Below are positions 1,235-61,932 of a DNA stretch of 64,000 bases, piece by piece. Positions within the stretch are counted from its first letter, which is position 1. Every line of letters starts with the position of its first letter. Made by a program: the position numbers and the translations under genes. Origin of the DNA: Mobula hypostoma. Taxonomy: Eukaryota. The notes beneath the pieces are model-generated. The model saw only the letters and a list, made by a program, of their open reading frames with translations, made no database searches and was not told the origin of the DNA. The stretch covers positions 30,690,001 through 30,754,000 of the forward strand of contig NC_086111.1 of NCBI RefSeq assembly GCF_963921235.1, in the 5' to 3' direction.

Positions 1235-1918
1235 GTCACCCATATTGATTTTCAATTGTTGCTAATGTTTATATTGAAAAAAAACAACAAAAAGGCACAT
1301 ACAATCCAGATTTCAGTAGAAAAATTAGGAAGCAATGTTTCAATTGTTTAGAGACTAGAGCACAGCAATTAGTTTCAGCCATCAAAGTGTCCAGAAAGTT
1401 TTATTGCTTCTTGTCTTAATGCACAGCAGGTTCAGTGATTTGCTAATACGGATGAAAATGATAAAATCGCAGTATTGCTTAACTGTGAATCAATGAAAGT
1501 CATGAACATTGGGAGTTATGGATGAATGGGATTTGGTGTGCATTAGGAAGAAAGGAATTTTGTATTACTTCAAGATTCGGAGGTTAGAGTCAGGGAGGCT
1601 TTCTAAGGATGAGCTTACGTAGTGAAGTCCAGAGCTAACAAAGGCATTGCTGAGGGTTTCAGGAGCAAATAGACTGAAATAGACCTGGAGTCAGAAAATA
1701 TTATGGAGGTTGAAACTGGGAATTTGAATTATAACAGGAATATGAAATACTGCAATTCAAACTGAGGCCATAAGACCATAAGACATAGAGCAGAATTAGG
1801 CCATTCAGGCCATCAAGTCCTTGTATGCAGGGGCTCTGCCCCCTGGTCCTAGACTCCCTCACGATAGGAAACACCTTCTTCATGTCCATTCTTTCAAGGG
1901 CACTCAGTATTTGACAGG

Positions 1919-2121
1919 TGTTATGTTACTTCTATTTAAACATTCTGTGGATTAACAACAAAAAAAAATCATGTTCTGGAAGAATTAGAGAACTTTTATT
2001 TACAGAAATAAACAAACACTTCTTTACCCCCGCCACATGGTGAAACATACTAGCAAACCCCGCGCATGTTCAGTGCTCTCCAATCAGGAACTGGCGCATC
2101 ATTGCGCATGATATCACTACA
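1919..2121 (-). repeat. 3' LTR
   Basis: TGTTATGTTAC...GATATCACTACA; about 90% identical to 3348-3547 by hand count; AATAAA on the minus strand. Confidence 0.93.
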
Positions 2122-2134
2122 TCTTCCCTTCCTT
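2122..2134 (-). promoter_or_regulatory. Polypurine tract
   Basis: Minus strand AAGGAAGGGAAGA directly before the TG of the 3' LTR. Confidence 0.85.
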
Positions 2135-2361
2135 AAAAAGAAAAAATAAAGAACAACATTAATCAAAACAAATACATAATTCAACAAGTCTCTATCAGTC
2201 TCTCTGTGGGTTTACTTGTTATTATTTACAGGTTTTGTCTCATCTTCATCCTTTAACTGAATCTCTGAAGAATCACAACTTCTTTTCCTTAAAAAGAAAA
2301 ACAAATAACAACATTAACCAATAAACAAATCTATATCAGCTAACTGACACTCTGAAGTTGG

Positions 2362-2529
2362 CTCTTCACTATCAGTGTCATAACTCTTCTTGTGCTTCTT
2401 TTTCTTCTCCTTTTCTGCTTTAAGTTTTTCTAAACTTTTTTGTATACTCTCACATGCCTCCTGGTTAGAATCTGGAATTTCAGGCAAGCAGTTCACGCTA
2501 TCCTCCTCAGCAATATCCTTCCCTGCTTC
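2362..2529 (-). pseudogene. SLU7: Probable captured SLU7 fragment
   Basis: EAGKDIA...[23 protein letters not shown] resembles recalled SLU7 EAGKEIV...EKLKEEKKKKKKKKKKHRKSSSDSDDEE with similar spacing; partly low complexity. Confidence 0.55.
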
Positions 2530-2544
2530 TGTTTGGACTGTATC

Positions 2545-2697
2545 TTTCTTAATTCCTTCCACTTCCATTTGTGATGAAATACAAATCTTCTTTTCTTCAT
2601 CTAATTCATTCATTAACTGTGAAATCTCTTTTTTATGCTGAGACTTCATCATTTCAATAAAACTTCTCAATTCCTTCATTTGTGCTTTCACTTCTTG
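2545..2697 (-). pseudogene. SH3KBP1: Captured SH3KBP1 (CIN85) C-terminal coiled-coil fragment
   Basis: [50 protein letters not shown] versus recalled human [50 protein letters not shown]. Confidence 0.83.
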
Positions 2698-2890
2698 CTT
2701 ATACTGTGCCCACTGCGAGCGTTCTTGCTCTAGATGGTGATTAGACTGAATCTCATATTCTCTCAGTCTCTTTCATCATCGCTTGCATTGAAGCAACCTC
2801 TTCCTGCCATTGCTTTTTCACATCATCAATTGCCCCCTGTTTGGTCGTCTCAGACACTGCAGTTACTGCTTTTATATTCTCCATGTCAGC
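2698..2890 (-). pseudogene. RABEP1: Captured RABEP1 (Rabaptin-5) N-terminal coiled-coil fragment
   Basis: [63 protein letters not shown] versus recalled human AEMENIKAIATVSENTKQEAIDEVKRQWREEVASLQAVMKETVRDYEHQFHLRLEQERTQWAQY; one 2-nt deletion. Confidence 0.88.
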
Positions 2891-3248
2891 ATTTTCATAA
2901 AGCACATCTGTATAAAATTCCTCACGTTCATCTTCAATCACAGCATTTACTTGTTTCATTTCATTTTCCTTCCTTCTACTTCTACAACAGTGCGAAAAAT
3001 GATTAATCTTACCACAGCTGTAACAAAGTTTGCCATATCCGAAACACTGATTTGGACAGTATTCCCATGCACAGCAATCACATGACTTTTTTTTTTCAAA
3101 TGCCGTCTTGCTTTCTGTTGGTTTTGTCCGCTTTTCTATCAGCTAAGGTGGCCGATACATATATCTCAAACTGTTGCTTGAATATCCTCCAATTCTCAGC
3201 TTCATAGCCAGTCAGCTGCAATTTTTGTGGGGGTTGTAAACTTTCCAT
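2891..3248 (-). pseudogene. Internally deleted Gypsy gag (N-terminus plus CCHC zinc knuckle)
   Basis: MESLQPPQKLQLTGYEAENWRIFKQQFEIYVSAT, then after a frameshift QCFGYGKLCYSCGKINHFSHCCRS (C-x2-C-x4-H-x4-C). Confidence 0.88.
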
Positions 3249-3333
3249 ATTACTGAATACCATTCAAACTTGTTTCCTCTTTTCTTTTGGATTATCTTCG
3301 ATTTTTGATTCTCCTGTATTATTCTTCCAAAAG

Positions 3334-3347
3334 CACTTCTAACACTA
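3334..3347 (-). promoter_or_regulatory. Primer binding site (tRNA-Leu type)
   Basis: Minus strand TAGTGTTAGAAGTG directly after the 5' LTR; two mismatches to TGGTGTCAGAAGTG, the complement of the tRNA-Leu(CAA) 3' end. Confidence 0.8.
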
Positions 3348-3547
3348 TGTTATGTTACTTCTATTTAAACATTCTGTGGGTTAACAACAAATAATCATAT
3401 TGTGGAAGAATTAGAGAACCTTTATTTACAGAAATAAACAAACACATCTTAACTCCTGCCACATGCTGAAACATACTGGCAAACCCCGGACATGCTCAGT
3501 GCTCTCCAATCAGGAACCGGCACATCATTGCACGTGATATCACCACA
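3348..3547 (-). repeat. 5' LTR
   Basis: TGTTATGTTAC...GATATCACCACA followed by TSD ACAGG. Confidence 0.93.
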
Positions 3548-5099
3548 ACAGGTTTCAATGAGATCCTCCTTCATTCTTCTGAACTCCTGTGAGTAGAGGC
3601 CCAAAGCCATCAAACACTCAATATACATTATCCCTTTCATTACCGGGATCATTCTCATGAAACTCCTCTGGACTCTCACCAATGTCAGCACATTGTTTCT
3701 TAGATAAGGGGCAAAACTACATACAATTCTCCAAGTATTGTCTGATCAATGCCTTATAAAGACTCAGCATTACATCCTTGCTCTTGTATTGTAGTCCTCT
3801 CAAAATGAATACTAACATTGCATTTGTCTTCCTTACCACCAATTCAAACTCCAATTCAACCTTCAGGGAATACTGCATGAGGACTCCCATGTCCCTTTGC
3901 ATCTTTAACTTCTGAAGTTGCTCCCTATTTAGAAAATAGTCTATACCTTCATTCCTTCTATTAAAGTGAATGACCATACATTTCCCTACACTGTACTCTG
4001 TCTGCCACTTCTTTGCTCATTCTCCTAACCTGTTTAAGTCCTTTTGCAGACTCTCTACTTTCCCAAAACTACCTGCCCCTCACCTGTCTTCATATTGTCC
4101 ACAAGCCGGGCCACAAGATCAGCAATTCTGTCATCCAAATCATTGATATATGACAGACAAAGAAATGGTCCCAACACTGACTCCTGTAAAACACGTCACT
4201 GGCAGCCACCCAGAAAAGGCCCTCTTTATTCCCATACTTTGTTTTCTGTCATTCAGCTAATCTTCTAGCCATGCTGGTATCATTCCATACCATGGTAATA
4301 CCATGTGCTCTTATCTTGCTCAGTAGCCCCATGTACAGTACTTGGTCAAAGGCCTTCTGAAAAGTCAAGTAACCGGCACCCACTGACACTCCGTTTTCTG
4401 TCCTACCTGTTATTTCCTAAAAGAATCCCAACAGATTTGTCAGATGAGATTTCCCCTGAAGGAAACCATGGTGACTTTGGCCTGTTGTATCATTTCCTTC
4501 CAATTAGCCTGAAACATCATCCTTAGTAATAGGCTCCAGTACCTTCCCAACCACTGAAATTAAGCTAACTGGCCTACAATTTCCTGTCTTTTGCTAGTCG
4601 AATATAACATCAATACGAATACAAAAAAACTTCTATGTTTCATATACACTCAGTGGTCACTTTATTAGGTACACCTGTACACCTACTCATTAATCCAAAT
4701 ATCTAATCAGCCAATCACGTGACAGAAACTGTATACATAAAAGCAAGCAGACATGGTCAAGATGTTCAGTTGTTGTTTCGACCAAACATCTGAATGGGGA
4801 AGTAATAGGGTCTAAGTGACTTTGACCATGGAGTGGTTGTTGGTGTCATGAGGAGGTGGCTGGGAATGGACCCAAGTACAAGACACAGACACTGAAATAC
4901 TAGGGACAGGACTAGGATACAGGCTAAGGGCAAGGACATGGACACGAAAACCGGGAACCCGGAACAGGACTGGACAAGAGAGCTAGGAGCCCGGGCTTGG
5001 ACTCCGAGCCAGAGACTGGACAAGGACCCAGTACCTGGGTCTTGCCTCTGGCTCGGACTCCAGAACTAGGCAAGGACGAGGCTTGGCAGGCAGGCAGGA

Positions 5100-5403
5100 T
5101 GAGGTTGGAGTCTTCAGGCTTGAGGCTTGAGGCTAGAGACTTGAGGCGAGGCTTGGCAGGAGGCAGGAGGCTAGAGACTTGAGGCGAGGCTTGGCAGGAG
5201 GCTAGAGATTTGAGGCTAGGCTTGGCAGGAGGCTAGAGACTTGAGGCAAGGCTTCAGGCTTGAGGCTAGGCAGGAGGCTGGAGTCTTCCGGCTTGAGGCT
5301 AGGCAGGAGGCTGGAGTCTTCAGGCTTGAGGCTAGGCAGGAGGCTGGAGGCTTCAGGCTTGAGGCTAGGCAGGAGGCTGGAGTCTTCAGGCTTGAGGCTA
5401 GGC
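5100..5403. repeat. Tandem array, ~33-bp unit AGGCTGGAGTCTTCAGGCTTGAGGCTAGGCAGG and variants
   Basis: At least four near-identical copies visible; they produce the repetitive ORFs 5202-5471 and 5241-5615. Confidence 0.9.
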
Positions 5404-5449
5404 ACGGTACTCCTGGGCAGGGCGCGGATCACCACCTGACAGAGGCATG

Positions 5450-5885
5450 GAACAGGAAGGGACAGAACCAACCACAGGTAACGGCAAGACGGCCTGGCTT
5501 ACCGGACGGAGGCAAGGGACAGGAAGTGACAGAACCAACCACAGGTAATGGCAAGACGGCCTGGCTTATCCGATGGAAGCAAGGGACTGGAAGGGACAGA
5601 ACCAACCGCAGGTAACGGCAAGACGGCCTGGCTTATCTGGGCGGAGGTGAGGGACAGGAAGGGAGCTAGGTACAGGGCGGCTCCAGGACGAGACTGCAGG
5701 CGAGGTGAGGCGAGAGTTACCAGCAAGACAAGGCAAGGCTTCAGGTAATGCAAGGTGAGACGTGAACTTCAGCTGAGGCGATAGTTACCGGCAAGACAAG
5801 GCAAGGCTTCTGGCAAAGCAAGGCGAGACGAGAACTTCAGCCGAGGCGAGAGTTACCGGCAAGACAAGGCAGGGCTTCAGCCGAG
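5450..5885. repeat. Two ~66-bp tandem arrays, about three copies each
   Basis: GACAGAACCAACCACAGGTAACGGCAAGACGGCCTGGCTTA x3; GAGTTACCGGCAAGACAAGGCAAGGCTTC x3. Confidence 0.85.
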
Positions 5886-6300
5886 GAAACAGGAGGCAGA
5901 GGAAGGGATACAAGGAGTAGGACAAGAACAATCCAGCAGCCACACCCTGGTCTCTGAAGGTATTTATGCAGCCAGCCCCAACGAGCATCAGCTGCCTCAA
6001 TTAGAGCTCAAGAAGAACAGAAACAGGGTAGACAGGAAAACCTGGAGCAAGGGTCAATGGACCAGACTGTGAACTGGAATACGGACTTCACGGACAGGAT
6101 CATGACAGTTGGTGCCTGATAGGATGGTTTGAGTATCTCAGAAACTGCTGATCTCCTGAACTTTCATACACAATAGTCTCTAAAGTTTACAGTGAATGGC
6201 GTGAAAATTAAAAAAACGTCCAGTAAATAGCAGTTCTGTGGGAAAAATGCTTTGTTAATGAGAGAGATCAGAGGAGAATGGCCAAAATGGTTCAAGCTGA

Positions 6301-15080: not shown

Positions 15081-16680
15081 TCAAGTCAAGTCAAGTCAGG
15101 AGAAGTTTATTGTCATTTAACTGCATACATGCATACCATATAATGGATATAGAAATGAGACAACGTTTCTTCAAAACAGGGTGTAAAGCTTAGTAGTACA
15201 CATAACACACAATAACTTCTGAAGGTAAGAATACAAGCTACACATAAATAACAAACTAATATGCATTAATATTAAAATTTGTAAGGTGCAGATCAGATTA
15301 GCTAGTGACACTTCGAATCACTAGCTAATCTGAGTTCAGAAGTCTAATTGCCTGGAGGAAGAAACTTTCTCATCCTGACCATTCTTGTTTTTATGCATTG
15401 TAGTCTCCTGCCTGGTGATGTAACATCAAAGAGGATGCTGGATGGATGCATAGGAACCTTAATAATACTAAGAACCCTGCATATGCAGTGCTCCTGATAA
15501 ATGTCCCAGTGGATGGTAGGATGCCAGGGAGACCCCTATGATCCTCACTGTCCTTTGTTGGAACTTCCGGTCCAACGCTTGACTGTTCCCATACCAGATG
15601 GAGATACAATTTGTCAGGACATTTTTAATGGTGCTCCTGTAAAATGCAGTTAAGATGAGGCGGGGGGGGAGGGGATGTGGGAGCTTTGCTTGCATAAAGC
15701 CCGGTTTATACTTCTGCGTCAACGCGTCGCCGTAAGGTCTGCGTTGCCGCAAACCCTACGCAAAGCCGACATGGAACCCTACGCGAGAGCTTGCGTCGCT
15801 GTGACACGCACCGCTCCCAAAATGTAACCGCGCGTCGCGGCAACGCAGAACGCAACAACTGTGATTGGTCCACCTGGTAGCGTCGCACGTCATCCTACGC
15901 TGCAATAGCTTCCCATTGGGCGACTGAAGGGCAGGGAAGGAACTCTGGCTGCAATGCTTTCCATAAAGCTTTACAGACCTCCGAAATTATGCAGGACACA
16001 TTTTACACGAAAAAAGACGCTCACGACTTGTTTACCCCAAGGCTACCACGACCGTGAAGCCTTGTGCGGGCAGGTGAGTGCGCATGAGTGACGTGCGCGA
16101 ATTGCCGAGTGACGCAGACAAACCAAGGCACAAGTATAAATGCTCACAACGCGCGTAGGCCACTTGCGTAGGTTACGGCTTCCAGTTAACGCAGAAGTAT
16201 AAACCAGGCTTCAGTCTTCTTAGAAAGTAGAAGTGTTGCTCTGCCTTCTTGTTCAGGGAGGTGATATTAAGTGACCAAGTGAGGTCATCCATGATGAGAA
16301 CTCCCAGGAACTTGGTGCACTTAACTCTCTCTGTGGAGGAGCCATGTATTCGCAGAGAGGGATGGTTTGTCTGCAGCTTCCTGAAGTCCACAATGATCTC
16401 CTTTGTTCAGGTTTAGCTTTTACTTCTCACATCAATCCACCAGAGGCTCCACTTCCTCTCTGTACTCCGTCTCATCATTCTTGATAAGGCCAACCACTGT
16501 TGTCTCGTCTGAAAACTTGATAACACAATTTGAGCTGGATCTTGCAACACAGCCGTGCATCAGCAGTGTGAACAGCAGCAGGCTGAGTTTGCAGCCGTGG
16601 GGACCACCAGTGCTCAGCGTAATGGAATGAGAGACATTGCTGCCCACATGGACTAAATGTGGCCTTACTGTTGAATGTCC
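15081..16680 (-). mobile_element. Rex1/Babar LINE, split by a Harbinger MITE
   Basis: (CAAGT)n tail; RT peptides STGGPHGCKLSLLLFTL...IKFSDETTVVGLI, KFLGVLIMDDLTWS and AFYRSTIKNVLTNCISIWYGN. Confidence 0.85.
15698..16210. mobile_element. Non-autonomous PIF/Harbinger element, copy 1
   Basis: TIRs AGCCCGGTTTATACTTCTGCGT and ACGCAGAAGTATAAACCAGGCT; 3-bp TSD TAA/TCA; transposase fragment on the minus strand. Confidence 0.88.
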
Positions 16681-24028: not shown

Positions 24029-24786
24029 CTCTTGTCTTTGATGTTCTTATACATTGATATAAAAGATTCTCATATCTCGTAAGAAGAGACTGCAGCTGCA
24101 CTGTCTTGACCCAAAACACCAGCCATCCCTTTGTAGCCATAAACTTGCTGAATTCATCCAGCAACTTGCTTTTTGCTTTCATGCATAATTCCTCACTGAA
24201 GCTGATGAAGATTTGTTCCATAATTATATCTAACAGTTATAGATGTTGAGAGCCTTCCTTTCCCTCCTCATCTTCTTTCTCTCTCTTCCAACAATTTCTC
24301 CCACTCTGCTTGCCCTCTAATCATTCTCCAAGTCATTCATTCCTAGAGAAATGCTGGCTAATGTCTTCTTGCCTAATTCATGAAGAAGCTTTGAAGTCAG
24401 CACAAAATGCAACATTCCCTTTAAAATAATAAAGCTTCAAAGTACTCTGCAAAGGATTTAAGAAAATTGCAAAAGCACAGCCAGAGCCAGTAGAATTCAA
24501 TAAGCAACTGACTTCCAGGTGGATAATAATTCCTCTGATAGATCTGTTGTGTACCCTTCCAGCTATTTAATGTGTGTTTATCTGTGAAGATATCAAAGAC
24601 TACTGGATGTCTGACCTCCAAAATGGCAGTGATAATGTAGGCACCATTACCTACCCAGTTTATATTTCTGATGGACATTGGCTGTGAAAGCATATGTACC
24701 CTCACCAATGTTGCAAACGGTGTGATTCACATACTATTTTGAAGTCTTCATGTCATCAGTAGCACACAGAATATGAGCATGACTAA

Positions 24787-25281
24787 AGGCTGATTTATAC
24801 TTGTGCGTCAACTCGACGCAGTAGGTACGGCATTGCTGTGAACCCTACGCAGAGCCTACGCAGATCCCTACGCCGTAGCCCTGACACGCACCTCTCCCAA
24901 AATGTAACTAGATGTCGCGGCAACGCAGACCGCAACAACTGTGATTGGTCCGCCTGGTAGCATCGCATTTCCTCCTACGCTGCAATAGCTTCCCATTAGG
25001 CAACTAAGGGGCAGGAAAGGAACTCTGGCTGCAATGCTTTCAATAAAGCTTTACAGACCTCCGAAATTATGGAGGACACATTTCGCTTTTACGAAAATAT
25101 ACGCTCGCTTTAAACTTGTTTACCCCGAGAAAGACTACCATGACCATAAAGCCTTGCGCGGGCAGGTGTGTGCGCATACGCGACGCAGACACTCCAACAC
25201 ACAAGTATAAATGCTCACAACGTGCGTAGGCCGCTTGTGTAGGTTACGGCGTCAATTTGACGCACAAGTATAAATCAGCCT
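24787..25281. mobile_element. Non-autonomous PIF/Harbinger element, copy 2
   Basis: Perfect 25-bp TIR AGGCTGATTTATACTTGTGCGTCAA; TSD TAA on both sides. Confidence 0.92.
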
Positions 25282-27305
25282 TAAGGCATGTAGTGTGTTG
25301 TTATGTGTCTCGATGTCCACTTGATGTATGTAGTCATGATTTTTTAAAACATAAGTTATACTTTTGAAGCATTTTTCCTTCTCTGTCACATGATAAACAA
25401 ATTTCGTTATTTTCAATTATTTATTTGCAATCCCTAAAAACATATTATAATTAAAGCCTTGTTCTCTTAATTATCTTTTAATTCATGACAATTAAAAAAA
25501 ACATTCTGACAGTAACAAATGTATCTGTGTCACATGCAATAATTATTGTATATTGGGGTGCATATGGTAAATGTTACAGCCATGATACATGCAATAAATA
25601 TTGTACATTGTGGCACATGCTGGATACTTTGTATATTGTGGTGCATGCAATGAATATATTGTACGATAAGACACACAATAAATATTGAATTTTATGCCAC
25701 ATACAATAAATTAGAGTTTACAGAGTTATTGGATCCTTGGTCTAAACTGAATATATTAATGATAGCCCTCGTGAAATAAGCAAAAATGACTAAAGTTAGT
25801 ATATTTAATTCAAGAAAGCAAATAAGTTACGGTAATATTACAAAAAGTCATGATAGTTTAAAGTTGTGGATTGCATAAATTGGGAAACTGTGTACACAAT
25901 AATGACAAAAATAGCACATTAGAAGGAATTCTTAAAGCACTGAACTGGAGGCTCACCAGACATTGAACCACAGAAGGTGATAGAAGGATCAAAGACCAAA
26001 ATCCTTTTCAAAGAGATGTGGTTTAACATGTGTTCTGAAAAATAAGATAAGTTTAAGGAGTACCAAAGGTTCAGGAGTTGAAACTGAAAGCAAGGAACCA
26101 ACGGTGGTGTACTTAAATTCTCCAGAAGTGGAGATATTTCAGAATTATTGAGAAGGAGGAGGTTTCACAGATGGGATGAGATCATTGAGGGATTTTAAAG
26201 GAAGAAAAATTTAAAACTGAGGTATTGCTTAATCTGGAACCAATAAAGTTGGTGATGTGTGAACAATTAATAGTGTGAATTAGAACATGGGCAACTTTGA
26301 TGATAGAAAACTTGAGTTTTAAAACCTTGAATATTACATGAGGTAAGAGAAGTGGGAGAGGTAAACAGATGCAAAGTCAAGGGTGAAGAGGTGTTGTTAT
26401 AATGTTGCAAGCAGGAATAGGATGTTGATGGTAGCATACATAGAGCTGAAGATGAATAAGAAATATAAAAATCAATAATTAAAAATATGATTAATTATGT
26501 TAATTACATGTCTATCTAAAATCATGCAATTAGACTTCAAAATTGCATTTTATTGAATAAATTGGCAAATAAATTATTTGATGAATTTTGATCATATGCA
26601 AGAAAAGCTACAAAAAGCGCACAAAAACTAAAGAATTTAACTGTAATATAGGCATACATGTGAATAAATATATTATGTAAATGCAGATGGGCATTTTTAT
26701 TAGATACTTAGTATTGACAGATTTTCAGTGTACTGTGGACACAAAGAGTGTGAAATATGCTTTTGTCAACCTTACTGCTTCTTTATAGATGTCACTCTGG
26801 ATACAACATTTTTCCAGCTGTGGAACAACTGGATTCAATGTTCCTGGAGTAGCCATTTCATTTACACAATGCAATGCAGAATATGAAGTAATACTCTACA
26901 TTTGTCTTGTTAAGTGCAGTGTGAATAACATTCAAGAATCACAACTCCATCCAGGACAAATACATTGCTTTGATTGGAATTCCATCCACCGCACTAGATA
27001 CTCACACTTCTAATGCACCACGGTTGCAATATGTACCATCTACTACCAACCCTCAACGACCTTCAAAACATCTGCAATGAATCAAAAAGACAGCACACTA
27101 CCATTTCCTCAAAAGCAATAAATTAACTTTTTACCTGAATTTTATTTCTATGAGCCTGAATCTTGAAAAGTTAAGAAATCACAGTACTACCCCACATGTA
27201 TTCCCATCCAATATACTCAATTAAAGAGTTACAACCTTTCAAGTTCCAGGAATTCTAGTTTGTGCATTCTCTTCTTATAACTGAATTCTCCATTAAGGCT
27301 CAGAG

Positions 27306-44429: not shown

Positions 44430-46465
44430 TAATATGCCAAGATTGTGCAATAACTCTAATGGATTATAAATTAACAAATGTAACAGAGGCATACTGAAAA
44501 GGAAGTGAAAAGGAAAAAGGGAACTACAGATTGGCTAACCTAATATCAGTCTTCAGAAAAATACTGAGGATTAATTATTAAGCAAGCGGTAATATAGCAC
44601 TTGGGAAATCATAATATGATTATGCAGAATCAATGTGACATTATTAAAGAGAAATCATGCTTGACAAATTTAATAATTTTTTGAGAGTATAATGATAGCA
44701 GGTCAGGTAAAGGAGAAACAGAGGTAAAGGAGAAACAGTGGTGATAATATATCTGAAGTTTTGATGTTGTCACAGAGAAGACTGTAACATAGACTGGTTA
44801 AAGGGCCAAAAGCAGACAGGAGGAATATACATACTATTTGTAGTTTGACAAATGTTACTTATGGGTATGAAAAAGATCTGTGCTGTGGTCTCAGCTGTTT
44901 GAAATCCATATAATAATTTGCGTGAAGAGACTAATGTAACATATCAAAATTTGCTGATGATAGCTGGAGAGGTTATGAAGGAAGGCAAAAATTCTCAAAA
45001 GGATAATGACTGACTCCAAAGATGAGCAAGAGCTTAGCAGCTGGAATGAAATATAGGAAAATGTAGGATTATTCTCTTTGGATAGAAAAATAAAGAATTG
45101 GGGTATTTTTAAATTGAGGAAAAGATATTAAATGTTGATGTTCCAAGGAACCTGTTTTTTTTTTGTCTGTGATATATGTTGTCAATTACAAGTACAACAA
45201 GCAATTAAGAACATAAGTGATTGGTGTATTTTAATGCAAGATTTTTGGTGTTTCACAAAATATAAGAGAATCTCGCTTGAATTACTTAGGGCTTTGACTT
45301 CTAAAGAAAAAAAGATTTATTAGTCACATGTACATCAAAACATACAGTGAAATGTGTTGTTTTGCGCCAACAACCAACGCAGTCCGAGGATGTGCTGGGG
45401 GCAGCCTCCAACTGTGGCCATGCTTTCAGCGCCAGTGAAGCATGTCCACAACTTATTAACTCTAACCCAGTCTTCTTTGGAACATAGAAGAAAACTGGAA
45501 CACCTGGAGGAAACCTATGGGGAGAACTTATAAACTCCTTATAGACCGCGACGGGAAGTGAGCTGGAAATTACACTGCCTCTGTAAAGAGTTATACTAAC
45601 TGCTAATCTATGATGCTGCCTTCTGTAGTTGCCTAGATAACATAGAAAGAAAATGTTTCCTCCATGGGGCAGTACACATATTCTCTGGACGCAAACATTT
45701 TTGAGGAATAGATTGAGTAGCAAATTTTTAATGTTCTCTGATTTAAAAGAATTAAAAATAATCCATTGAAGTGTACAGATTCTAATGGAGTTTGAGCAGG
45801 TAAATGTTATGAAGCTGGGCTGGTTGTGAAGAAGGCTTTTTGTTGACTGGCCTTCATCAGTCAGGGCAATACCTAAGGAAGCTGGAATATTATGTCGCAG
45901 TTGTATAAAATGTTGGTCAGGCTGTATTTGGAATATTATCTTCAATTTTTGTCACTCTGCTATGGAAAAGACTGCATTGAACTGGAAAGAGTGCAGAAGA
46001 AATTTACAAGATATTCAAGTGACTGAGTTATGGAGAGAGGTTGAGCGGGCTGGGACTTCTTTTGCTGGAGCATGGAAGAATAAGGGATGATTTTATACTG
46101 GTCTATAACATCATGAGAGGCATAAGTGGGATGAATGTGCTCAGTCTTTTTTTCTCCAGAATTAAGGGAATCAAGAACTAGATGTCGTATGTTTAAGGTG
46201 AGAGGAAAGAGATTTAATAGGAACTTGAGGGGCAATTTTTTTTCACCCAGAGGGTGGTCACTAAATAGAATGAGCTGCCAGAGGAAGTGGTTGAGGCAGA
46301 TTCATTAACAACAATTAAAAGGTGTTTGGACAGGTCCATGGCTAGGAAAGGTTTAGATGAATATTAAAGGAACACTGGCAAATGGGACTAGCTTAGATGG
46401 GAATATTAGTCAGTTTGAACCTGTTTGGACAAAGGACATGTTTCTGTACTGTATTACTCCATGAC
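44430..46465 (+). mobile_element. Old CR1 LINE fragments, split by a SINE
   Basis: GNYRLANLIS, KFADD and LERVQKKFTR motifs; CR1 3' UTR at ~46250-46465. Confidence 0.75.
45303..45620 (-). mobile_element. V-domain SINE
   Basis: Reverse complement of the 43674-43982 family. Confidence 0.8.
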
Positions 46466-48159: not shown

Positions 48160-50985
48160 TTAGAAAGGCTTTCAATAAAGTCCGACATGCGAGGTTGGGT
48201 CCCATGGAATGCAGGGAGAGCTAATGAGGTGGATTCAAAGTTGGTTCAGATGTTGGGTGCAAAGGGCGATTTTTGAAGGAAGATTCTCAGAATGGAGGCT
48301 GGTGACTGGTGGTGTGCCACAGGGGTTGTTGTTGGAACCCTTGTTATTCTTAATTTATATAAAAAAAAATTGGATGTAAATGAATAGAATTGGATCAATA
48401 ATTTTGCAGATAACACAAAATTAGCAGGTGTTGACTGTGAAGAAGGTTATCATAGATTACAAGGGGATCTTGATTAGTTAGGGAAGTGGAGAAAATGGGT
48501 TTCACTATAGATTAGTGCAAGGTGATGTGCTTTGGGAAGGCAAGACTTGTACTATGAATGGAAAGGCACGAGAGTGTGATGGAACAGAGGTACTTAGGAA
48601 TGCAAATGTATCTTTGATCAAAAGCGCCTCAACAGGCAGACAGCACGATAAAGAAGGCTTTTAGCATGCTGCCCTTCATCAGTCAGGCCAATGAATATAG
48701 GAGCTGAGACATTAGACCACAAGACAACGGAGCAGAAGTCAGCCATTCGGTCCATCGAGTCTGCTCCGCCATTTTATCATGAGCTGATCCATTCTCCCAT
48801 TTAGTCCCACTCCCCTTCCTTCTCACTATAACCTTTGATGCCCTGGCTACTCAGATACCTATCAATCTCTGCCTTAAATATACCCAATGACTTAACCTCC
48901 ACTGCCGCCCATGGCAACAAATTCCACAGATTCACCACCCTCTGGCTAAAAGAATTTCTTCAAGCATCTCTGTTCTGAATGGGTGCCTTTCTATCCTTAA
49001 GTCATGTCCTCTCATACTAGACTCCCCCACCATGGGAAACAACTTTGCCACATCCACTGTCCATGCCTTTCAACATTCAAACTGTTTCTCTGAGGTCCCC
49101 CCTCATTCTTCTAAACTCCAAGGAGTACAGTCCAAGAGCGGACAAGCGTTCCTCATATGTTAACCCTCTCATTGCCGGATTCATTCCAGTGAATCTTCTC
49201 TGAACCCTCGCCAACGTCAGCACATCCTTTCTTAAATAAGGAACCCAAAACTGCACACAGTACTCCAAGTGAGGTCTCACTAGCGCCTTATAGAGCCTCA
49301 ACATCACATCCCTGCTCCTATACTCTATTCCTCTAGAAATGAATGCCAACATTGCATTCGCCTTCTTCACCACCGACTCAACCTGGAGGTTAACTTTAAG
49401 GGTATCCTGCACGAGGACTCCCAAGTCCCGTTGCATCTCAGAACTTTGAATTTTCTCCCCATTTAAATAATAGTCTGCCCATTTATTTCTTCTTCCAACG
49501 TGCATAATCATACACTTTCCAACATTGTATTTCATTTGCCACTTCTTTGCCAATTCTTCCAATCTATCCAAGTCTCTCTGCAGATTCTCTGTTTCCTCAG
49601 CACTACCGGTCCCTCCACCTATCTTTGTATCATCAGCAAATGTAGCCACAAAGCCACCTATTCCATAATCCAAATCATTGATGTACAATGTAAAAAGAAG
49701 CAGCCCCAACACGGACCCCGTGGAACACCACGGGTAACCGGCAGTCAACCAGAATGGGATCCCTTAATTCCCACTCTCTGTTTCCTGCCAATCAGCCAAT
49801 GCTCTATCCACGTATGTAACTTTCCCATAATTCCATGGGCTCTTATCTTGTTTAGCAGCCTCATGTGCAGCACCTTGTCAAAGGTCTTCTGAAAATCCAA
49901 ATACACAACATCCACTGCATCTCCCTTGTTCAGCCTACTTGTAATTTCCTCAAAAAATTGCAATAGGTTTGTCAGGCAGGATTTTCCTTTAAGGAAACCA
50001 TGCTGAGTTCTGCCTATCTTGTCATATGCCTCCAGGTACTCTGTAACCTCATCCTTGACAATTGACTCCAACAACTTCCCAACCACCGATGTCAAGCTAA
50101 CAGGTCTATAATTTCCTTTTTGCTTCCTTGCCCCCTTCTTAAATAGCGGATTGACATTTGCAATCTTCCAGTCCTCCGGAAGCACGCCAGAATCTATTGA
50201 CTTTTGAAAGATCATTGCTAATGCCTCTGCAATCTCCACAGCTACTTCCTTCAGAACATGAGTGTGCATTCCATTTGGTCCGGGAGATTTATCTACCCTA
50301 GACTATTCAGCTTCCTGAATAATTTCTCTGTCATAAATGTGACTGCGCACACTTCTCTTCCCTGACACCCTTGAATGTCCGGTATACTGCTAATGTCTTC
50401 CTCAGTGAAGGCTGATGCAAAATACTCGTTCATTATGTCGCAGTTGTCTAATTTGTTCATGAGGATGTTGTGTACAGTTTTGTACACCCTGTTATAGGAA
50501 AGGTGTGGTTAAGCCAGAAAGAGTACAGAAAAGATTTTCAGTGGTGTTGCTAGAACTAGAATATCTGAGTCATAGGGAGAGATTGGCCAGGCTAGGTTTT
50601 TGTTCCTTGGACTGGAAGAGAATGGGGAGCAACCTTATAGAAATTATGTGAGACATAGATAAGTCTGTATAGTAACTGTTTTCTCTTAAATAAGAAATAG
50701 GGGGCATATGTTTAAGGTAAGAAGTGAAAAATGTAAAAGAAACCCATGGATCATACTTCTCATGCAGAGGGTGGTGGGTATATAGAACGAGCTGCCAGAA
50801 GATGTTTTGAGGTAGGTACAATAATATCATTTAAGAAGCACTTGTACATATAAAAGGAGGAGTGGGGCTTAGAGAAATATGGGTTGAACACAAGAATTGG
50901 GATTATCTGGGTGACATCTTGTTTGGCATGAAGGACTTATTGGGTTGAAGGATTTGTGTCAGTAATGTATTGCTCCATAACGCTA
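48160..50985 (+). mobile_element. Older CR1 LINE (outer element)
   Basis: GGVPQGLLLEPLLF and FADNTKLAG before 48714; the element resumes at 50431 and runs to its 3' UTR. Confidence 0.8.
48715..50430 (-). mobile_element. Younger CR1 LINE nested in an opposite-strand CR1
   Basis: Long ORFs 49077-49748 and 49745-50269 with RT motifs (YLDFQKTFDKV, FADDTKIGG); CATTA duplicated at both junctions. Confidence 0.93.
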
Positions 50986-52890: not shown

Positions 52891-53437
52891 GGCTGTAGTT
52901 ATCTTTACCAAGGATAGTTATTGCTTTCCTTTTCTCTTTGATCCTCTTGAGCATTTCAGCATGAAGCTCAATGGCTCCTGCTACACCCTGCTTTTGGTCT
53001 CTGTCAAACCTGGCTGTGCTAGGAATTTGGGTAAAGGAGCCACCATTAATCCTAACCCTTTGCCGTCACAATGCAGGCTGATGTCTTTCAACTGCTTCCA
53101 GTCAGCTCTTCCAAATTCAGCAGTACAATGTGCACATTGTGCAAGCACAAAGTATTACGTCGTAGAACTGCCAGCTTTGGATTGCTGATCAGTGCTGGCC
53201 TGACTGTGTGCACTTTACTGAGGAGGACATCGGCCTTAACAAGAGCACAAATGCCTTGTTTATAGAAGATCCTGTACAGTGACAATGACAACCATTTGTG
53301 CCTCTGTTGCTCCCACTCGGCTGTCCATCCGTGTACTCATTGAAGGGAGTCTGTTCAATGAGATGGACACTACACTAACTTTACAAGGGATAATCTTCAG
53401 GCTGTCACTAAGGTGTGAAACAGTGAGGTGTTCCTTA

Positions 53438-53931
53438 AGGCTGATTTATACTTCTGCGTCAAATCGACGCCTTACGTACAGCGTAGCCATGAACACTACG
53501 CAGAGCCTACACGTATCCCTACACCGTAGCCTGACGCGCACCTCTCCCAAAATGTAACTACGTGTCGCGGCAACGCAAACCGCAACAACTGTGATTGGTC
53601 CGCTTGGTAGCATCGCATTTCCTCCAATGCTGCAATAGCTTCCCACTGGGTGACTGAAGGGCAGGGAAGGAACTCTGGCTGCAGTGCTTTCCATAAAGCT
53701 TTACAGACCTCCGAAATTATGGAGGACACATTTCGCTTTTACGAAAAAAGACGCTCGCTTTAAACTTGTTTACCCCGAGAAAGACTACCATGACCACGAA
53801 GCTTTGCACGGACAGGGGTGTGCACATGCGCGACGCAGACACACCAACACACAAGTATAAATGCTCACAACGTGCGTAGGCCACTTGTGTAGGTTACGGT
53901 GTCAATTTGACGCAGAAGTATAAATCAACCT
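53438..53931. mobile_element. Non-autonomous PIF/Harbinger element, copy 3
   Basis: TIR AGGCTGATTTATACTTCTGCGTCAAAT; TSD TTA; minus strand [32 protein letters not shown] (Harbinger transposase fragment). Confidence 0.92.
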
Positions 53932-54139
53932 TTACTGTTTTCTTGATTTGGGCATAGTTAACCTTTCCTTTGGCACCACTTGTTCAGTTTTCTAGAGGTT
54001 ATTGTGGGAGAGCTGCCTTCATTCAAGCTGTAGCAGTTAATGAAGAAGGCTCTATATTATCATCTCCCTGCTGCTCAGTTCTCACAAATTGAGAATATAT
54101 ATATGCAAGAAAGGACCACCCAAGAGAACTGGATGACTC

Positions 54140-59860: not shown

Positions 59861-60234
59861 TAACTGGTTCTTTTATTCTTTCTGGATCAGAATAGCCATT
59901 TTTTTCCCTGCCATTGTTGTGGCTGAGATGTTTCTTTTTGTATAGCTGGGTATGATTCACAACTTAATGATTAACCACACATAGTTCAAACTGCCATTTA
60001 GCATCACCCTGTCAGAAATATTCCTTTTGTTCTTCCCTTTCCATCCATTTGTTTTGAATTCATTCCGCATCTTTGGATGCATTGAACTGAAATGTCTCTT
60101 TATTATCTTCACTATGTCTACATATGATCCTTCAGTGTTAAATTATGATACACTCACGAACCAACATTTCACGTCTTCAGCCCCACTACCAAATGTAGTA
60201 TCATCATCATACCCTATATTATATGATTGTGTTC

Positions 60235-61932
60235 CTTTGTTCTCTGTTCTTTGGGTATCAGTGTTACTGTGGAAGACACTAGCAGTATGGTGGAAGTTCC
60301 ATGTGTGCGCTCATGAATTGTGTGAAGCTACCATTACTAGGGAGAAGGTTCTAGGGAAACTGAAAGAACTGAAGGTAGGTAAGTCACCTGGGCCAGATAT
60401 TGTACCCCCTAGGGCTCTAAAAGAGGTGGTTGAAGGCATTGTGGAGGCATTAATAATGATATTTCAAGAATCACTAGATTCTGGAATGGTTCTGCAAGAC
60501 TGGAAAATTGCAAATGTCACTCCTCTTCAAGAAGGAAGAGAGGCTGAAGAAAGGAAAAATTATAGGCCAGTTAGTCTGACCTCGGTGGTTGGGAAGATGT
60601 TGGAGTCCATTGTTAAGGATGTAGTTTTGAGCTACTTGGAGCCACATGATAAAATAAGCCGTAGTCAGTGTGGTTTCCTCAAGGGAAAATCTAGCCTGAC
60701 AAATCTGTTGGAATTCTTTGAAGAAATAACAAGCAGGATAGACAATGGAGAATTGGTGGATGTTGTGTACTTCGATTTTCAGGCCTTTGACAAGGCACCA
60801 CACATGAGGCTACTTAGCAAGCTATGAGCCCGTGGTATTACAGAGAGGATCTTAGCATGGATAAAGCAGTGGCTGACTGGCAGGAGGCAAAGAGTGGGAA
60901 CAAAGAAAGCCTTTTCTGGTTGGCTGCTGATGATTGAGATCTGTGTTGAGACCAATTTTTTTTTTGTCTTATTTTTGTGTGGTATGTTAATGATTTGAAT
61001 GATGGAATTGATGGCTTTGTTGCAAAATTTGCAGATGATACGAAATGGGTCAAGGGACAGGTAGTTTTGAGGAAGTAGAAAGGCTACAGAAGGACTTAGA
61101 TTAGGAGACTGGGCAAAGAAATAGCAGTTAGAATGCAGAGTCGGGGAGTGTATGTTCATGCACTTTGGTAGAAGAAGAGAAAGGGTTGACTATTTTCTAA
61201 ATGGAGAGAAAATACAAACAACTCAGGTGCAAAGTGCTTGGGCAGGATTCCCTAAAGGTTAATTTGCAGGTTCAGTCTATAGTGAGGAAGGCAAATGTGA
61301 TGTTAGCATTTATTTTAAAAGGACTAGAAAATTAAAGCAAGGTGTTATTTTGAGACTTTATAAAGCTGTAGTGAGGTTTCACTTCAGTATTGTGAGCAGT
61401 TTTGAGCAACTTATCTTAGAAAGGATGTTCTGAAACTGAAGAAGGTTCAAAGGAGATTCACAAAATTGATTCCAGGTTTCAACAGCTTGTCATATGAAGA
61501 GGGTTTGATGGCTCTGGGCCTTTATTCACTAGAATTTAGAAGAATGAGGTATGACCTCATTGAAACCTATCCAATGTTGAAAGGCCTTGATAGAGTGGAT
61601 ATGGAGAGGATGCTTTCTATGGTGGGGGTGTCTACAACCAGAGATCACAGCCTCAGAATATAGAGTTACACTTTTAGAATGGAAATTAAGATGAATTTCT
61701 TTAGTCAGAAAGTGGTGAATTGGTGGAATTCGTTGCCAAATACAGCTCTGGAGGCCAAGTTTGTTTACATATTTAAGGCAGAGGTTGATAGAATCTTCAT
61801 TGGTCAGGTCAAGAAGGGATACAGGGAGAAGGCAGCAGATTGGGGCTAAGAGGGGGAAATGGCTCAGCCATGATGAAATGATGGAGCAGACTTGATGGGC
61901 CAAATGTCCTAATTCTGCTTCTATGTCTTATG
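60235..61932 (+). mobile_element. CR1 LINE, 5'-truncated
   Basis: KSPGPD, NYRPVSLTSVVGKMLE, YFDFQAFDK and KFADDTK motifs; 3' tail TATGTCTTATG. Confidence 0.92.

Follow-up and report, generated by a model that had tools for sequence, protein, structure and literature searches.

A captured piece of spliced SH3KBP1 message beside RABEP1 and SLU7 pieces in a non-autonomous Ty3/gypsy-type element of Mobula hypostoma

The segment at 2544-2696 on the minus strand of the window (the whole 64,000-nt stretch of Mobula hypostoma DNA analyzed here) is a captured piece of the ray's own spliced SH3KBP1 (CIN85) message. It resides in a non-autonomous element of the Ty3/gypsy type (1,629 bp, 1919-3547, minus strand), in which the order is gag, zinc knuckle, RABEP1, CIN85 coil and SLU7. 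Template switching likely brought the SH3KBP1 piece into the RABEP1-carrying lineage, where it was probably retained as a passenger, since the master copies needed a long open frame.

The identity of the segment is clear at several levels. The minus-strand translation of 2545-2697 matched the human CIN85 coiled-coil structures 5ABS and 2N64 with E-values of 8e-13 and 3e-12, respectively. Of 19 protein-database matches, 15 are SH3KBP1 by name or by its three SH3 domains and none is named CD2AP. The SH3KBP1-type matches come from rays, sharks, a chimaera and lungfish (full SH3-domain proteins, 15-16 rows, one full-length but unnamed), and the remainder are one short unnamed piece and two Hemitrygon akajei models (P0004 and P0016) that are themselves element chimeras. 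In the ray's own genome, SH3KBP1 is found at G000:C18 and is identical to the segment (2696-2544, minus) at 149 of 153 nt and 46 of 51 amino acids. The segment consists of three exons joined exactly at splice sites, with introns absent at both boundaries (2/2); since introns are absent from the captured pieces, transduction of unspliced genomic DNA was rejected. A paralog at G000:C2:30.668-30.670 Mb, which we infer to be CD2AP-like, shares only 41% and 50% of amino acids with the segment over two exon pieces. SH3KBP1 is thus the nearest host gene and CD2AP is ruled out as the donor, in agreement with the original prediction that the match to CIN85 is the better one. The description of the coil as almost whole was also correct, because the piece lacks just the final five host residues and the stop.

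The features of the element, in window coordinates, are as follows.

1914..1918, unstranded: 5-bp target-site duplication, left copy (ACAGG; the same 5-mer is at 3548-3552)
1919..2121, minus: 3' LTR (TG...CA); LTR-LTR K2P distance 0.103
2122..2134, minus: polypurine tract
2314..2362, minus: stub of the integrase C-terminal tail with the family ORF stop
2363..2529, minus: captured spliced SLU7 mRNA piece, three exons, native frame, Lys-rich (exon matches, splice sites)
2530..2543, minus: 14-nt integrase-tail stub, remnant of the SH3KBP1/pol junction common with the SH3KBP1-only family
2544..2696, minus: captured spliced SH3KBP1/CIN85 C-terminal coiled coil, three exons, boundaries after 2633 and 2569
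2686..2894, minus: captured spliced RABEP1 N-terminal coiled-coil piece, two exons (host match, Pfam)
2686-2696, minus: short homology common to RABEP1 and SH3KBP1
2895..3115, minus: gag C-terminal part with CCHC zinc knuckle (start 3025)
3116..3263, minus: gag N-terminus, ATG at 3263; copy-private deletion of about 470 nt at about 3115
3334..3347, minus: primer-binding-site-like stretch adjoining the 5' LTR
3348..3547, minus: 5' LTR
3548..3552, unstranded: target-site duplication, right copy (ACAGG)

The hallmarks of Ty3/gypsy elements are all present: TG..CA LTRs, a primer-binding-site-like stretch (putatively of the tRNA-Leu type), a polypurine tract and a 5-bp target duplication. The exact 5-bp duplication is also found in 13 of 50 window-type copies that have both LTRs. 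The window copy itself is dead. Its frame is broken twice before the coil, by the out-of-frame gag deletion of about 470 nt and by a 2-nt deletion in RABEP1 at about 2768.

Other repeats occur in the window as well. Decayed RT fragments of CR1/L2-type LINEs are found at 3550-4585, 45301-45951, 49077-50302 and 59985-61858, and the studied element is inserted beside or into one such fragment. A second LTR-like element (4846-6107) has a duplicated end (about 4846-4860 and 6090-6107) and an interior made of several tandem repeat arrays with 33-, 67- and 68-nt units. Three MITE-like copies of about 510 bp with 42-46-nt terminal inverted repeats are located at 15694-16218, 24778-25290 and 53433-53939.

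The other two host pieces were captured in the same manner. The piece adjoining the coil had been assigned to RABEP1, and this assignment is borne out by a Pfam Rabaptin match (E=8e-21) and by identity to the host gene on C71 at 197 of 209 nt; it represents two exons with the intron removed at their single boundary (1/1). For the stretch downstream of the coil (2363-2529), a protein database search gave no named match, and contigs placed on the element ran on from it into non-element sequence. A presumed likeness to SLU7 was then tested against the genome. The SLU7 gene, identified through Pfam PF11708 at G000:C21:67.57-67.59 Mb, accounts for the stretch as three spliced exons in their native frame, with introns absent at both boundaries (2/2). 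The middle captured exon (L297/L298, G000:C21:67583226-67583309) is followed in the host gene by a GC rather than a GT splice donor. All three pieces, from RABEP1, SH3KBP1 and SLU7, are in their native frame in the family. No fourth donor gene was found at the pol-tail position in 30 loci fetched with a query biased to the SH3KBP1-only family.

The element search produced 988 first-look candidates, 40 of them scored, and the coil alone gave 435; these are not copy numbers. A host piece was found in 196 of the fetched loci, of which 170 are unique; they form a sample of best-scoring matches and not a random one. The 170 unique copies comprise 75 of the window type, 48 with SH3KBP1 only (S), 33 with RABEP1 and SH3KBP1 but without SLU7, and 14 with RABEP1 only (R). 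All but one of the 33 have the coil inside the RABEP1 coil (RSR) or are truncated (32 copies). The reading frame of the SH3KBP1-only family continues unbroken from gag and protease through the host piece to the integrase tail, as seen in one natural frame of 563 aa. Two sets of copies deserve separate mention. L036 and L037 (G000:C1:168.38 and 168.43 Mb) are SH3KBP1-carrying copies 45 kb apart with identical match tables and, together with the nearby L247, likely represent a local segmental duplication. L204 (G000:C18:42448000-42451200) contains a coil-inside-RABEP1 copy with another, partial RABEP1-coil piece directly behind it, in a tandem or nested arrangement.

An autonomous relative is present in the same genome, with the same gag and LTR ends and the order gag-protease-RT-...-integrase. 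RT with the same gag(-protease) upstream was found in 20 of 20 loci and has a Pfam RVT_1 match. The integrase was read from translations, and Pfam gave no match for it on the C-terminal 226 aa tested. Among 30 loci retrieved by their pol tail, 14 contain integrase, 13 SH3KBP1 and three only RABEP1. The presence of RT in 20/20 and of integrase in 14/30 loci means that a helper existed. The family as a whole is an old burst, now dead, because median LTR-LTR distances are 0.068-0.094 (0.103 in the window copy), copy trees are star-like, and none of the 75 window-type copies is open over gag and cargo, while 19 of the 75 are open over cargo alone. Outside Mobula, the public H. akajei gene models P0004 and P0016, annotated as 'uncharacterized' and 'RABEP1-like', are copies of this element family. 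In three runs from other organisms, contigs extend at least 31 letters to either side of the gag/RABEP1, RABEP1/coil or coil/SLU7 join (X15 record 4; X18 records 20, 22 and 23; X20 records 28 and 31), which speaks to presence only. Four runs whose RNA origin is a guess gave contigs over parts of the element, and junctions are bridged in runs of this kind; these contigs are uninformative on expression.

It had been proposed that a self-association module took the place of a deleted capsid region of gag. The family speaks against this proposal. The deletion of about 470 nt is private to the window copy (1 of 75 window-type copies) and is out of frame there, and 51 of the 75 copies show one continuous LTR-gag match. 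Moreover, the host pieces occupy the place of protease, RT, RNase H and integrase in all families. The region deleted here resembles Retrotrans_gag/Ty3_capsid in another copy according to language-model features (0.95), a resemblance that we treat as a lead. For the natural gag frame, no capsid match was found in PDB or Pfam, and its single-sequence fold (pLDDT 38) was too poor to use. Taken together, the single-copy deletion, the continuous LTR-gag matches and the capsid-like region indicate that the cargo replaced pol and not the capsid; capsid replacement is therefore ruled out.

How the pieces came together can be read from the surviving families. Since the SH3KBP1-only family and the window type have the SH3KBP1/pol 3' junction in common, SH3KBP1 was apparently captured once and then passed on. 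SH3KBP1-only, RABEP1-only and recombinant families coexist, which argues that template switching at short homologies brought the coil in from a sister element. The inspected junctions show homologies of about 4-12 nt, and one RABEP1 motif that resembles both the coil start and the coil end was used for both switches in the coil-inside-RABEP1 family. The sequences suggest that capture took place on the stingray-type stem, because captured SH3KBP1 states are common to Mobula and Hemitrygon and absent in sawfish, skate and electric ray (e.g., positions 74-75), because position 36 retains the ancestral state where Mobula changed, and because the same chimeras occur in the Hemitrygon models. The C-terminal region of the ray's own SH3KBP1 agrees with database protein P0002 at each of the variable sites listed, and protein similarity places the genome among myliobatiform rays. 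The probable order of events would begin with SH3KBP1 3' exons replacing RT-RH-IN to give the S family, and with a separate capture of RABEP1 exons giving the R family. Co-packaged S and R RNAs would then have recombined at the RABEP1 motif, yielding the RSR and RABEP1-coil forms. Capture of SLU7 into the pol tail and deletion of the protease would have completed the window type. The switches would have been made by reverse transcriptase between co-packaged RNAs, along the lines of the model outlined by Tan et al. 2016 (PMC5131818).

We asked what kept the host pieces in the family. Distinct large junctions present in at least two copies are all in frame (16/16), compared with 18 of 30 single-copy junctions (Fisher p=0.004). 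The 16 come from 30 multi-copy junction bins (178 copies), of which 14 were set aside by us, being duplicates or else small indels adjacent to junctions already known. A homology-based null gives an in-frame probability of 0.37-0.51 per junction for homologies of 3-7 nt and 0.42-0.65 at 8 nt; even at 0.55 per junction, 16/16 has p of about 7e-5, and 10/10 at 0.5 has 1e-3. Recurrent SLU7 indels are likewise all multiples of three (3/3 classes). Private indels of the window type (81 in frame, 240 out) are as expected after insertion.

At the level of codons, gag and cargo were compared in the window-type alignment. In gag, shared changes are 42 N:33 S vs 348:78 for singletons (p=4e-6), indicating purifying selection; this signal may reflect patches acquired by exchange with autonomous relatives. 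On the captured codons no purifying selection was detected (shared 11 N:3 S vs singletons 291:65, p=0.73), with low power, as the test includes just 14 shared changes and its difference from gag is not significant (p=0.14). The coil alone gives 4 N:2 S vs 191:46, and SLU7 compared with the host gives 10:3 vs 122:22. A pooled host-versus-copy test (21 N:15 S shared vs 527:150, p=0.013) was discarded because it counted fixed synonymous sites once per family and included host-lineage changes. A putative role for the coil finds no support at the codon level, and the data favor the frame over the protein as the reason for cargo retention.

The passenger explanation fits these observations as follows. 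Transcripts translated to near the 3' LTR might escape decay, be packaged with their own Gag, or both. In-frame products would multiply as a result, with the partner supplying RT and integrase in trans. A search of the literature on decay or packaging favoring long translated frames found nothing specific. Neither the RABEP1 nor the SH3KBP1 piece was itself required, since RABEP1-only and SH3KBP1-only families both spread. Against strict frame keeping stand three observations. In gag, 27 of 68 window-type copies have an A-run shortened by 1-2 nt, where post-insertion slippage and a shifted master are indistinguishable; five codons before the coil end, 1 nt is deleted in 11 of 49 S copies and in none of 72 window-type copies; and six copies (4/30 RSR and 2/72 window-type) have a recurrent 5-nt deletion within the coil.

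An alternative is that the coil was functional, with a C-terminal trimerizing or oligomerizing tag on Gag aiding assembly of the partner's particles or entry into them, and was kept for that reason. The CIN85 coil is reported to trimerize (PMC10786037), consistent with the three chains of structure 2N64, and two of the three captures are coiled coils. The 5' boundaries and internal deletion ends of captured SH3KBP1 fall at cDNA positions 59, 105, 252, 259-261, 268-274, 280, 293, 325 and 334, nine end points upstream and none inside the coil, which starts at about 334 (rough p=0.02 if uniform). The coil is kept in 28 of 30 loci found with the upstream SH3KBP1 piece, whereas upstream sequence is lost in nine of 24 S loci found with the coil (15/24 keep it; p=0.007 vs 28/30, events not independent). 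This repeated trimming of upstream SH3KBP1 with the coil spared is the only hint that the coil mattered. However, because the coil adjoins the fixed 3' junction, 5' trimming would spare it anyway. The RABEP1-to-coil join preserves the hydrophobic register of the native RABEP1 continuation, but the second RSR join, read by hand, adds a one-residue stutter. Furthermore, the coil shows no amino-acid constraint in the shared and singleton counts given above, RABEP1-only families (14 copies) spread without it, and most copies retain an intact capsid-like gag, which left nothing to be replaced. On balance, a functional coil is possible but doubtful. Its most specific form, a Gag with a stolen trimerization tag, in which the coil was trimmed to its exact helical start and grafted in register onto the Rabaptin coil, seems rather unlikely; if true, the tag would have been kept through rounds of recombination since it let the parasite Gag out-compete or hijack the helper's particles.

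The in-frame junctions might also have arisen without selection, if purine-rich, GAA-codon-rich host segments resemble the element RNA so that switches land there, often in frame, and amplification is chance. The captured pieces are indeed purine-rich (coil 0.70, SLU7 0.69 and RABEP1 0.65, vs 0.55-0.59 in the element), the in-frame null exceeds one third, 18 of 30 single-copy junctions are in frame and shared frameshifts exist. The junction probabilities and SLU7 indel classes nevertheless make this account improbable, and at the TE/SH3KBP1-59 join, read by eye, the longer homology is out of frame but the copies carry the in-frame form. Least probable by far is that the chimera interfered with host CIN85/CD2AP or Rabaptin-5 as a dominant negative on endocytosis, to the benefit of element or host: co-assembly of the coil with host CIN85 is conceivable, and CIN85 and RABEP1, two of the three donors, are endocytic adaptors, but the endocytosis theme of the original prediction is weakened by the third donor, SLU7, being a splicing factor, the captured codons are without constraint, no window-type copy is open over gag and cargo, and neither env nor an extracellular phase, which would give endocytosis a bearing on the element, was seen in any fetched copy.

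In transducing (oncogene-capturing) retroviruses, Gag is fused in frame to spliced host exons that replace pol, and the product is mobilized by a helper. The ray family differs in having no env, in its germ-line amplification and in showing no sign that the cargo benefits the element. The ray family is of interest because it preserves a series of steps (two separate captures, recombination, a third capture and trimming) across at least 170 copies, and thereby makes testable whether the cargo of a non-autonomous LTR element is kept for its encoded protein or only for its open frame. Spurious ray gene models annotated as 'RABEP1-like' or 'uncharacterized', such as the two from H. akajei, are also explained by the family.

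We found no description of the RABEP1/SH3KBP1/SLU7 family among the papers listed on the donor genes, on capture in elasmobranchs or on LTR retrocopies in Mobula, and the main text of a manta/devil-ray genome preprint (10.64898/2026.10.27.761883) has zero mentions of SH3KBP1 or RABEP1. Abrusan et al. 2013 (PMC3597677) describe a similar outcome, host coding fragments fixed in the ORF of a TE family; they report selection in nine of 24 testable cases, while none is detectable on the ray's captured codons. The likeness to the LTR-mediated retrocopies outlined by Tan et al. 2016 (PMC5131818) extends to a host mRNA piece replacing part of an internal ORF, similarity at switch points, retention of both LTRs, secondary retroposition and multi-gene chimeras that are often in frame. 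In the ray element, too, introns are absent, both LTRs are present, the ORF is replaced and not interrupted, and the switch points show similarity. However, the retrocopies in that account are mostly young with one to few insertion sites, whereas the ray family has at least 170 copies, four architectures, parent and intermediate forms, and a frame kept through 16 amplified junctions. The closest resemblance is to maize Bs1, an LTR element in which, according to the same source (PMC5131818), three unlinked cellular gene pieces are fused to gag with constant switch points. Bs1 is present there in 1-5 copies with one piece out of frame, whereas the ray family keeps the native frame in all three pieces, has at least 75 copies of the window type alone, and is carried by a vertebrate Ty3/gypsy element. 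The mechanism is thus already known from Tan et al. and from Bs1, and it is the far larger scale in the ray that is unusual.
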